NCBI GenBank assembly: GCA_964470915.1
Contig: CAYYEM010000003.1
Span: 1-45,535, forward strand
Direction of reading: 5' to 3'
Origin: an uncultured Pseudomonadota bacterium
GTDB taxonomy: Bacteria; UBA10199; JADFYH01
Length of the DNA: 45,535 nt
Positions within the stretch are counted from its first letter, which is position 1, and each line of letters opens with the position of its first letter. Shown piece after piece: positions 23,484 through 24,443 of the stretch. The notes below the pieces were generated by a model, which was given only the letters and a program-made list of their open reading frames with translations, was not told the DNA's origin and did no database searches. A program made the position numbers and the translations under genes.

Positions 23484-24443
23484 ATGTTAAATAACGTTTC
23501 TCATTTATCTCCAGAGTTAAAAGCTTTGGTTTATGTTGCAGCATTGGGTGAAGAGGAGAATGCTTTTGAATTGTTTCGTTTTTTGCCGACTCGCTTTGAA
23601 AAAAACTTAGTAGAATCTACGCAATCCGTTTTATCGCTTCCAAAAGAGGAGCGAAAAAGAAAGATTATTAAAGAATTAAAGCAATTAGCCCAATCACAAA
23701 AAATTCATCCATTAGGCGAAATTCATCCGGGTTGGTTTTTGGAAGTTTTAAAAGAAGAGAGCCCTAAAACCATTGGATTAATCTTAAGATATCTTCCTGG
23801 CGATAAAGTGACTTATATCCTTGAGAATTTAAGTCAGGATATTAAACAAAAACTTCCTAAGTTAAATGAATCAAAAAAAATTCAAGAAGGATTGTTAGAG
23901 TTAATCAGAGAACGCTTTGAATCTCAGTTTCTGACTTATAACTTGCCTAAAAAAAGTTCGGATATAGGAATTCAAGATTTGTATTTTATCAAGGTTGAAC
24001 TGTTATTAGCCTTTTTCAGAGATTTAGGTATCGAGCAGTTAGCAAGAGCTTTTAAAGGACTTGATAAAGTAGCTTTGAAAGCTCTTTTAAACAGGCTAAC
24101 CATTAAAGATGCAAAAGAACTTCAAAGTAGAATTAAAAGTTTAGAAAAGGTCTCAAAGAGAGAACTTAGCGAGGCTCAGGTATTAATTATTGATTTACCT
24201 ATCGATCGCATAGATCCCGAGGCATTATTTTTAGAAGTGGGTATGGCATTTTTTGCACGGGCCATTTCTCAAGCCGAATTAGATTTTGCGAAGTCACTTC
24301 AATTTAAATTGCCCCCTAAATATGGGTATTTGTTAAAAAGATATGTGGAAGAGAGTTTAGAGACCTATAAACCGCGTTTAATGGAAGGAGCTAAAAGGCA
24401 AATTTTAGCTCGTTTTCATGAATTTCCCAGTCATTTATCCTAG
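23484..24443 (+). CDS. FliG-like protein (flagellar rotor/switch fold) in the position usually occupied by SctK
   Basis: 319 aa, similar to FliG in length. N-terminus LVYVAALGEEENAFELFRFLP versus FliG ILLMTIGEDRAAEVFKHLS. Middle LKEESPKTIGLILRYLPGDKVTYILENLSQDIKQKL versus FliG [36 protein letters not shown]. A C-terminal helical domain follows. No SD sequence before the ATG. Confidence 0.55.
   Translation: MLNNVSHLSPELKALVYVAALGEEENAFELFRFLPTRFEKNLVESTQSVLSLPKEERKRKIIKELKQLAQSQKIHPLGEIHPGWFLEVLKEESPKTIGLILRYLPGDKVTYILENLSQDIKQKLPKLNESKKIQEGLLELIRERFESQFLTYNLPKKSSDIGIQDLYFIKVELLLAFFRDLGIEQLARAFKGLDKVALKALLNRLTIKDAKELQSRIKSLEKVSKRELSEAQVLIIDLPIDRIDPEALFLEVGMAFFARAISQAELDFAKSLQFKLPPKYGYLLKRYVEESLETYKPRLMEGAKRQILARFHEFPSHLS

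Follow-up and report, generated by a model that had tools for sequence, protein, structure and literature searches.

A diverged FliG-like protein encoded in the SctK position of a type III secretion gene cluster from an uncultured bacterium

The window analysed here, the whole stretch of 45,535 nucleotides at positions 1 to 45,535 of contig CAYYEM010000003.1 (forward strand; assembly GCA_964470915.1, an uncultured Pseudomonadota bacterium), contains a T3SS (type III secretion system) gene cluster, and within it an open reading frame (ORF) of 319 codons whose product resembles FliG. FliG serves as a flagellum-specific marker, and we know of no accepted flagellar homologue of SctK. As an earlier note made from the DNA letters had stated, the ORF coordinates place the FliG-like gene directly upstream of sctL. 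It also follows the sctI-like gene and sctJ, which is the slot of SctK on pCD1 of Yersinia, on the virulence plasmid of Shigella and on a plasmid of Bradyrhizobium.

The similarity of the encoded protein to FliG is far above chance. Pfam recognised FliG_M at 31.7 bits (cutoff 25, E 1.9e-7, residues 85-149) and FliG_C at 29.9 bits (cutoff 23.3, E 7.2e-7, residues 165-237), and the same scan found no CBS, MgtE membrane or other domain. When a profile built from 18 homologues was compared with the PDB, the ten best matches were FliG chains (1lkv, 3usw, 3ajc, 4fhr; E 3.5e-6 to 5e-3), with two LicT antiterminator chains as the sole unrelated names at E < 0.01. Alignment of a 135-member family profile with E. 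coli FliG by hhalign (probability 95.8%, E 7e-9) joined residues 6-239 to FliG 2-312, so that the resemblance along the length of the protein, proposed earlier by eye, was recovered over the N, M and C parts; both of the pairings then pointed out, LKEESPKTIGLILRYLPGDKV with a stretch of FliG and LGEEENAFELFRFL with IGEDRAAEVFKHL, recur in this alignment. The AlphaFold2 (AF2) monomer model (predicted local distance difference test, pLDDT, 85.6) leads to the same family, as each of the 14 best PDB matches found with it by Foldseek is a FliG, either full-length or an MC fragment, with a probability of 0.84-1.0 for the first 13 and 0.57 for the fourteenth. Domain-level TM-scores for FliG_M lie at 0.66-0.72, with values of 0.72 (4fq0_C) and 0.69 (3soh_B) for the M module.

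Collectively, these comparisons support the view that the 319-residue protein is a true, albeit remodelled, FliG homologue and neither SctK nor a generic MgtE_N protein. The profile and fold comparisons with FliG and SctK that the earlier note had envisaged pointed to FliG, with no SctK chain among the Foldseek matches listed and no more than a weak profile similarity to SctK, and wherever SctK or a generic MgtE_N family might have been assigned instead, the FliG models scored best. A generic MgtE_N protein was ruled out, because MgtE_N reached 24.8 bits, just under its Pfam cutoff of 25.9, whereas the FliG models score higher. An ordinary flagellar FliG was ruled out as well, given a score of 32.6 bits with the TIGR00207 fliG equivalog model (cutoff 226.7), the state of the torque residues, the missing ARM_C domain and the gene context.

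Comparisons of family sub-profiles with a small FliG alignment by hhalign (residues 1-80 serving as the sub-profile for the N module), taken together with the structural model, indicate an architecture of four helical modules of the FliG/MgtE_N type, namely N, M, C and a duplicated C module, designated C' (Table 1). Among the 135 full-length family members, Pfam detects FliG_C in 124 and FliG_M in 120. The M module retains E92 (133/135), W84 (132/135) and P94 (123/135), and an E-S-P-R sequence replaces the EHPQ of FliG. No part of FliG corresponds to the last 80 residues; these form the C' module, which hhalign identifies as an internal duplicate of the C module (residues 238-319 against 160-240 of the same family, probability 97.5%, E 6.5e-12) and which holds the best-conserved residues of the family, among them G253 (132 of 135 members) and the KLPxxxGYLLKRY motif.

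In the flagellar ring, ARM_C (FliG_CN) stacks on the ARM_M of the neighbouring subunit, thereby chaining the FliG subunits. The hhalign comparison revealed no counterpart in the FliG-like protein to residues 188-237 of E. coli FliG, which make up the Gly-Gly linker and ARM_C, and the model contains a low-confidence linker of ~10-15 residues (147-162) at this place. The loss of the ring-chaining part suggests that a continuous ring of the FliG type may not be needed. In FliG, the torque-helix charges contact MotA, and the EHPQR sequence of FliG_M is the FliM-binding patch. Whether the torque-helix charges are conserved had been left open by the earlier note, and they proved not to be. After verification of the E. 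coli FliG numbering and mapping through the ungapped alignment, K264, R281, D288, D289 and R297 correspond to positions 191, 208, 215, 216 and 224, none of which is conserved among the 135 members (191: S31 A22 R17 K15; 208: K27 E26 R19; 215: E22 A17 D13 R12; 216: R62 A17 K15; 224: S50 D21 P21). The equivalent of D289 is mostly Arg or Lys and thus charge-reversed.

An exhaustive profile search yielded 943 representatives at E<=1e-3, of which 259 reached E<=1e-10 and 137 reached E<=1e-30, so that the family comprises at least 137 clusters at 50% identity. All sources looked up were metagenomes or metagenome-assembled genomes (MAGs), whose labels include Bdellovibrio/Pseudobdellovibrionaceae, Deltaproteobacteria, Myxococcales, Acidobacteria and Schekmanbacteria, and most of the named members are annotated as 'hypothetical protein' by NCBI. 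Synteny was assessed by tblastn of the T3SS proteins of the window against 17 genome loci encoding relatives. In all 15 loci with DNA on both flanks, the FliG-like gene lies between the sctI-like gene and sctL, and every locus long enough keeps the order TPR chaperone-sctJ-...-fliA-like sigma-sctI-like-FliG-like-sctL-sctN-sctO-sctP-FliM-like sctQ-FliN-like-FliO-sctR-sctS-sctT. The identity of the FliG-like proteins across the 17 loci ranges from 31 to 78%, with the lowest value similar to those of SctL (37%) and the FliM-like SctQ (28%). Relative to loci L001 and L002, dN (nonsynonymous substitutions per site) is ~0.15 and synonymous sites are saturated, hence no numeric dN/dS; the gene is under strong purifying selection. 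Even in two distant loci, L018 (an Acidobacteria MAG) and L020 (a metagenome contig), the core module of sigma factor, FliG-like protein, SctL and FHA proteins holds, in the order PP2C-small ORF-TPR-sigma-FliG-like-SctL-FHA(YscD_cpl)-TPR-TPR-FHA-FHA, followed in L020 by a kinase gene.

Table 1. Features of the T3SS gene cluster, beginning with the FliG-like gene and its predicted modules (window coordinates)
Feature	Position	Strand	Evidence and remarks
FliG-like gene	23484..24443	+	ATG start, 319 aa; Pfam, hhalign, AF2, Foldseek, dN
N module, FliG_N-like	23484..23708 (residues 1-75)	+	aligns with FliG 1-61, probability 90%, E 1.6e-6; five helices in model
M module, FliG_M-like	23721..23933 (residues 80-150)	+	sub-profile 80-160 aligns with FliG 117-187, probability 95.7%
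C module, FliG_C-like	23961..24203 (residues 160-240)	+	aligns with FliG 238-315, probability 96%
C' module, extra four-helix module	24204..24440 (residues 241-319)	+	G253, KLPxxxGYLLKRY; pLDDT 90-97
sctV	11652..13775	+	TIGR01399 hrcV 807 bits (cutoff 692); FlhA 713 bits, below cutoff 772
FHA-FHA-TM protein (SctD cytoplasmic-domain type)	13794..14870	-	Pfam FHA x2, Yop-YscD_cpl 103 bits
FHA(YscD_cpl)-TM-PEGA-TPR protein, SctD-like N-terminus	16243..18411	+	Pfam; kept in related loci
sctJ lipoprotein	19961..20863	+	best NCBIfam match is the SctJ model, 137.9 bits (below cutoff 161.95), vs FliF 39 bits
FliA/WhiG-type sigma factor	22075..22872	+	best NCBIfam match TIGR02479 FliA_WhiG 132.9 bits, below cutoff 189.6; two genes upstream of FliG-like gene
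sctI-like (weak assignment)	22905..23390	+	Pfam T3SS_basalb_I E 0.2 only; position, conservation
hairpin and T-run, terminator-like	23413..23441	+	between sctI-like and FliG-like genes; 13-bp stem, then T-run
TACAAT, -10-like hexamer	23469..23474	+	9 nt before ATG; TAnnAT invariant in 6 aligned loci
sctL/fliH	24464..25219	+	Pfam FliH 69.5 bits; BLASTP YscL 52 bits vs FliH 37 bits
sctN ATPase	25228..26598	+	NCBIfam SctN and FliI both match; identity 57% to YscN vs 48.5% to FliI
sctO	26619..27119	+	Pfam YscO-like 71.9 bits; FliJ 27.1 bits, below cutoff
sctP / FliK-like	27140..27997	+	Pfam Flg_hook 22.2 bits, below cutoff; conserved position
FliM-like SctQ	28049..29002	+	Pfam FliM 74.6 bits; BLASTP FliM E 2.5e-6, no match to YscQ N-terminal part
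separate FliN-like SctQ-C	29002..29409	+	Pfam FliMN_C 74.4 bits; FliN 58.5 bits vs YscQ-C 51.6 bits
FliO homologue	29439..29801	+	Pfam FliO 40 bits, cutoff 22; kept in related loci, between FliN-like gene and sctR
sctR, sctS, sctT	29779..31674	+	NCBIfam yscR 233.6 bits (cutoff 208.6); BLASTP Ysc > Fli

Judged by sequence comparison, the core apparatus encoded around the FliG-like gene (SctV/N/R/S/T/J/L) is closer to injectisome than to flagellar proteins. BLASTP placed SctN, J, L, R, S and T nearer to the Ysc than to the Fli proteins, and SctR passes the yscR model and fails the fliP model of NCBIfam. The cytoplasmic and accessory parts are of the flagellar type, comprising a FliM-like SctQ, FliN encoded by a gene of its own, FliO and a sigma factor of the FliA type. 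To our knowledge, FliO is regarded as flagellum-specific. In each of the 17 related genome loci, and also in L018 and L020, a FliA/WhiG-type sigma gene precedes the FliG-like gene. Between the FliG-like gene and sctT, the gene order matches fliGHIJK-fliMNOPQR, and the flagellar order fliF(sctJ)...fliG-fliH-fliI-fliJ-fliK-fliM-fliN-fliO-fliP-fliQ-fliR is kept. The FliM-like SctQ contains a (D/E)(R/K)xLGG loop, whose LLGG is invariant in 14 orthologues and which includes GGXG in the clade of the window. This loop is the remnant of the GGXG of FliM, the conserved FliG-binding loop.

Searches by tblastn for a secretin, sctU and a needle gene with YscC, MxiD, YscF, YscU, Spa40 and YscD returned nothing in the window or in the related loci L001-L020. 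All ORFs of at least 100 amino acids in the window were read, and the unassigned ones scanned with Pfam, with no MotA/MotB-like ORF among them, as the earlier note had held for Mot-like stators; similarly, no rod, hook, filament or MotAB genes were found in the window or the 20 related loci. Its reading of a FliG homologue in the SctK slot, beside an SctJ-type ring and with no stator in the window, is supported. With no secretin or sctU in the cluster and flagellar parts retained, the system is a non-flagellar T3SS but not a canonical injectisome.

On the membrane side, SctJ has a cytoplasmic tail of ~50 amino acids after its transmembrane (TM) helix (residues about 252-300), compared with ~8 in YscJ and ~85 in FliF. 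The motifs in this tail are clade-specific (LLxGP in the clade of the window, (I/L)xxEGPPxL in distant loci). The two SctD-like proteins of the cluster combine a YscD-type FHA domain with a TM helix and lack the usual periplasmic ring domains, having either PEGA/TPR domains or no periplasmic part. A gene of the FHA-FHA-TM type accompanies the FliG-like gene even in the distant loci L018 and L020.

On this basis, we propose that the diverged FliG homologue is a fixed structural component of a T3SS without a secretin in its cluster and acts as an adaptor that does not rotate and that joins the membrane ring to the FliM/FliN platform, a reading to which we assign a probability of roughly 0.7. It builds on the FliG homology and domain make-up, the loss of the stator-contact residues and of ARM_C, the fixed synteny, the purifying selection and the flagellar-type partners. 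Within the cytoplasmic sorting platform, the protein would be the adaptor nearest to the membrane, taking the part that SctK plays in the injectisome and FliG in the flagellum. Its N module could dock on the membrane ring through the ~50-residue tail of SctJ, by analogy with FliF-C and FliG-N, and/or through the FHA domains that both SctD-like proteins carry, much as SctK docks on SctD. The E92-x-P94 patch of the M module, a putative remnant of EHPQR, would bind the LLGG loop of the FliM-like SctQ, similar to the FliG_M-FliM_M contact in the structures 4fq0, 4qrm and 3soh, and SctQ/FliN would then hold SctL and the SctN ATPase beneath the export gate. Because the torque-helix charge positions are unconserved or reversed and MotAB is lacking in the window, the protein would neither make nor receive torque. 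The C' module, with G253 and KLPxxxGYLLKRY, is predicted to provide a lineage-specific interaction surface.

Several observations weigh against this proposal. The N module, which would make the contact with the ring, is the least conserved part of the protein, with Pfam FliG_N found in only 27 of the 135 members. Among the same members, the EHPQR patch keeps only its E and P, with S in place of H, R/K in place of Q and L/M in place of R160, and on the partner side, the fourth Gly of the FliM GGXG is missing in half of the SctQ orthologues. The SctJ tail is only moderately conserved across loci, and no sequence similarity was found between it and the C-terminus of FliF. Whole-chain TM-scores to FliG are low (0.18-0.27), as expected for flexible multi-domain chains, and the relative arrangement of the domains thus stays unverified by the model. 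The negative results for stator and flagellar genes apply to the window and the related loci rather than to whole genomes. Finally, all physical contacts, and the adaptor role itself, are ones that we infer by analogy.

A more far-reaching idea, which concerns descent and is compatible with the adaptor mechanism, is that the protein represents the SctK of its lineage and that SctK proteins arose by degeneration from the C-terminal modules of a FliG that had no stator and a duplicated C module, with the present family as the intermediate. A 'FliG-like role' of SctK was proposed in 2014 (PMC4045390), although we know of no demonstration of homology. Apart from the gene position shared with Yersinia, Shigella and Bradyrhizobium, directly ahead of sctL and behind sctI/sctJ, the idea draws on the C-C' region. 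When this region was aligned by hhalign with Ysc-type SctK proteins, residues 247-281 matched YscK 141-175 with a score of 27.6 (P 5e-4, probability 32%), well above the values obtained with a reversed profile (13.4), the best of 30 column shuffles (13.9) and true FliG against SctK (12.3). The best-conserved residues of the two families coincide with an identical 25-residue spacing (G253...K275-L-P277 versus G147...R169-L-P171 in YscK), which is also seen, by eye, in the Bradyrhizobium SctK-position protein, and Pfam YscK (PF06578) gives a weak match to the same region (16.3 bits, cutoff 22, E 0.007). This shared motif is short and partly matched by eye, however, and the full family profile reaches a probability of only 8-14% against SctK. 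Pfam YscK matches at E<=0.1 in no more than 2 of the 135 members, and both MxiK and the Bradyrhizobium protein, used as single sequences, remain at the hhalign background. Moreover, no SctK chain, including 6uie, occurs among the 50 matches listed of the 90 Foldseek matches to the FliG-like model, and a model of YscK finds PscK 6uie at TM 0.71-0.82 but no FliG.

We therefore rejected an assignment to SctK, given a Pfam score below cutoff, hhalign probabilities of 1-32%, background scores for MxiK and the Bradyrhizobium protein and no Foldseek cross-hits, and retain the weak similarity, which exceeds the controls, as an unproven lead. The descent of SctK from such a FliG appears doubtful in the light of these results, albeit not far-fetched.

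The adaptor proposal also has to be weighed against a regulatory role. Genes of Ser/Thr signalling surround the T3SS (5090-5854, 13794-14870(-), 16243-18411, 35577-37004(-) and 37031-39559(-)), encoding a PP2C phosphatase, the two FHA(YscD_cpl) membrane proteins, an FHA-sigma54 activator and a Ser/Thr kinase with a PEGA domain. The recurrence of the PP2C-TPR-sigma-FliG-like-SctL-FHA core in L018 and L020 suggests a phospho-regulated assembly of the T3SS. The FliG-like protein may accordingly be imagined as the scaffold of a Ser/Thr-phosphorylation switch, in which FHA proteins, PP2C and the kinase control assembly via its phosphorylated form, as in the Fha/PpkA/PppA system of the type VI secretion system (T6SS), rather than as a constitutive structural adaptor. 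This would fit the presence of all these components in the window and the fact that FHA(YscD_cpl) and PP2C genes, often joined by a kinase gene, accompany the FliG-like gene even in loci whose other T3SS genes are located elsewhere (L018, L020). But a conserved phospho-acceptor was not identified in the FliG-like protein, the conserved patch of the M module suggests a structural contact, as does the FliM loop, and the YscD-type FHA domains of injectisomes are known to bind SctK without phosphorylation. We consider this scenario improbable.

A working rotor protein, in a machine that rotates with stators encoded elsewhere in the genome, would account for the N-M-C homology to FliG, the retention of FliM, FliN and FliO and the partly kept xFxF-like hinge (F161 in 46 and F163 in 80 of the 135 members), but it is very hard to reconcile with the loss of all five torque charges, the charge reversal at the D289 position, the missing ARM_C, a ring protein of the SctJ rather than the FliF type, the failure to reach the TIGR00207 cutoff and the lack of rod, hook, filament and MotAB genes noted above. 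Still less credible is a decaying flagellar remnant or a generic MgtE_N helical protein present in the cluster by chance, since the near-threshold MgtE_N score and the hypothetical status of members in NCBI annotations are outweighed by the fixed position at 31-78% identity, the occurrence in at least 137 clusters, the strong purifying selection, the higher scores of the FliG models, the colinearity of three FliG domains and the lack of CBS and MgtE membrane domains.

The order of the homologous N, M and C modules is that of flagellar FliG, with which the protein also shares the Glu and Pro of EHPQR, a gene position before fliH/sctL and FliM-like and FliN-like partners. It differs in the lack of the Gly-Gly linker and ARM_C, the lost torque charges, the additional C' module and a shorter N module, and also in its setting, beside an SctJ lipoprotein ring instead of FliF and without stator, rod, hook or filament genes, as well as in scoring far below the equivalog cutoff. 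With SctK (YscK/PscK/OrgA/MxiK), it has in common the slot before sctL, the predicted job of linking the ring to SctQ, the all-helical make-up and the weak similarity of C' to the Ysc-type proteins. Unlike SctK, however, it is ~110-140 residues longer and contains clear FliG_M and FliG_C domains, and neither Pfam (YscK or OrgA_MxiK) nor Foldseek makes it a member of that family.

A full-text literature search, whose coverage did not extend to the T3SS* paper of Thiery et al. 2022, found no published FliG homologue inside a non-flagellar T3SS, with the exception of a chlamydial FliF-FliG fusion. The FliG-like protein gives a weak NCBIfam match to the C-terminal end of NF004606/PRK05934, which we take to be this fusion. 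In the Chlamydiaceae (CT719 family), a FliG_M-like domain has been kept in a non-flagellated lineage near T3SS-related genes (Bergeron 2016, PMC4768692). The chlamydial protein, though, retains no more of FliG than an M-like domain, joined to a shortened FliF, and is part of an orphan 'flagellar' set outside the injectisome cluster, whereas the protein described here is free-standing, has four modules and is encoded inside a T3SS operon.

The system as a whole resembles the secretin-less T3SS* of Myxococcus (PMC10433427, PMC12075869). Similar to the 'needleless' T3SS* of Myxococcus xanthus, or Myxo-type non-flagellar T3SS (NF-T3SS), it has no secretin in its cluster, FHA-type SctD-like proteins, several LcrH-like TPR chaperones and hosts of the Deltaproteobacteria type, a likeness that concerns gene content as given in published descriptions (PMC3459982, PMC10433427) rather than the MXAN_2434-2464 sequences. 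For the Myxo-type NF-T3SS, a place midway between the flagellum and the injectisome has been proposed (Abby & Rocha 2012, PMC3459982; PMC10433427; PMC12075869). FliG, in contrast, is unlisted among the T3SS* parts and was explicitly reported as absent from the basal 'Myxo' class (PMC3459982), while the present cluster has a FliG-like protein, FliO and a FliA-like sigma factor and lacks sctU locally.

The cluster resembles a still extant intermediate between the flagellum and the injectisome. It is tempting to go further and regard the family as the missing link between FliG and SctK, and the whole cluster, with its flagellar gene order, FliA sigma factor and Sct-type core, as a living intermediate on the way from the flagellum to the injectisome, but we consider this tentative and on balance unlikely. 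The main value of the finding is evolutionary and mechanistic. A widespread FliG homologue that is under selection and fixed in the SctK slot lends direct genomic support to a stepwise exaptation of the flagellum, in which the C-ring triad was kept and torque generation lost. At the same time, it represents a natural experiment on the function of FliG apart from rotation, namely ring-to-platform coupling, and the relationship between FliG and SctK becomes testable by structure comparison and complex modelling. The family further marks a large unannotated class of T3SSs in uncultured bacteria, some of them labelled as relatives of Bdellovibrio or Myxococcales, which is possibly akin to the predation-associated T3SS* of Myxococcus.

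The region upstream of the FliG-like gene contains candidate signals for its expression (Table 1). Across six loci, the stem of the hairpin behind the sctI-like gene (AAAACCCCTC/GAGGGGTTTT) shows no variation while the loop does vary, a degree of stem conservation that is unusual for a plain terminator. About 27 nt downstream of it lies the TAnnAT element. As noted earlier, a TACAAT hexamer ends 9 nt before the ATG, and inspection of AAACTATCT, the sequence between the two, likewise confirmed that there is no recognisable Shine-Dalgarno sequence in it. A leaderless or near-leaderless mRNA appears plausible, because the ATG follows TAnnAT at a distance of 9-12 nt in the window, L001, L002 and L003; in L008 and L004, the ORF starts ~70 nt further downstream. 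A consensus sigma-70 scan found no full promoter upstream of the gene, leaving support for the -10-like element alone. Between the stop codon of the FliG-like gene and the probable start of sctL, there is a sigma-70-like promoter (TTGTCA-17-TATAAT, 24464-24492) with 11/12 consensus matches. Given this promoter and a GGAGG at 24522-24526 ahead of an ATG at 24539, the latter is the likely start of sctL, and the TTG-initiated ORF from 24464 is probably too long by 25 codons.

Several further ORFs deserve mention. A Gly-rich protein of 183 amino acids (18877-19428, +), encoded just upstream of the TPR chaperone gene and sctJ, has no Pfam hit. By hhalign, its conserved C-terminal ~45 residues (...MQTKVQNLSQQMQSISNIFKADHDARSNAIRNFRS) can be aligned over their whole length with the C-terminal helix of the needle protein YscF (E 0.014, probability 3%), and its ending resembles that of PrgI ('...IIQNFR'). 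We note it as a weak lead to a possible needle- or filament-like subunit in an otherwise needle-less-looking system. Downstream of sctRST, two Gly/Met-rich proteins (31861-32889 and 33706-34878) are each paired with a TPR chaperone and may be T3SS substrates. Lastly, an ORF of 539 codons (40661-42280, +) follows the kinase gene and is without a Pfam hit.

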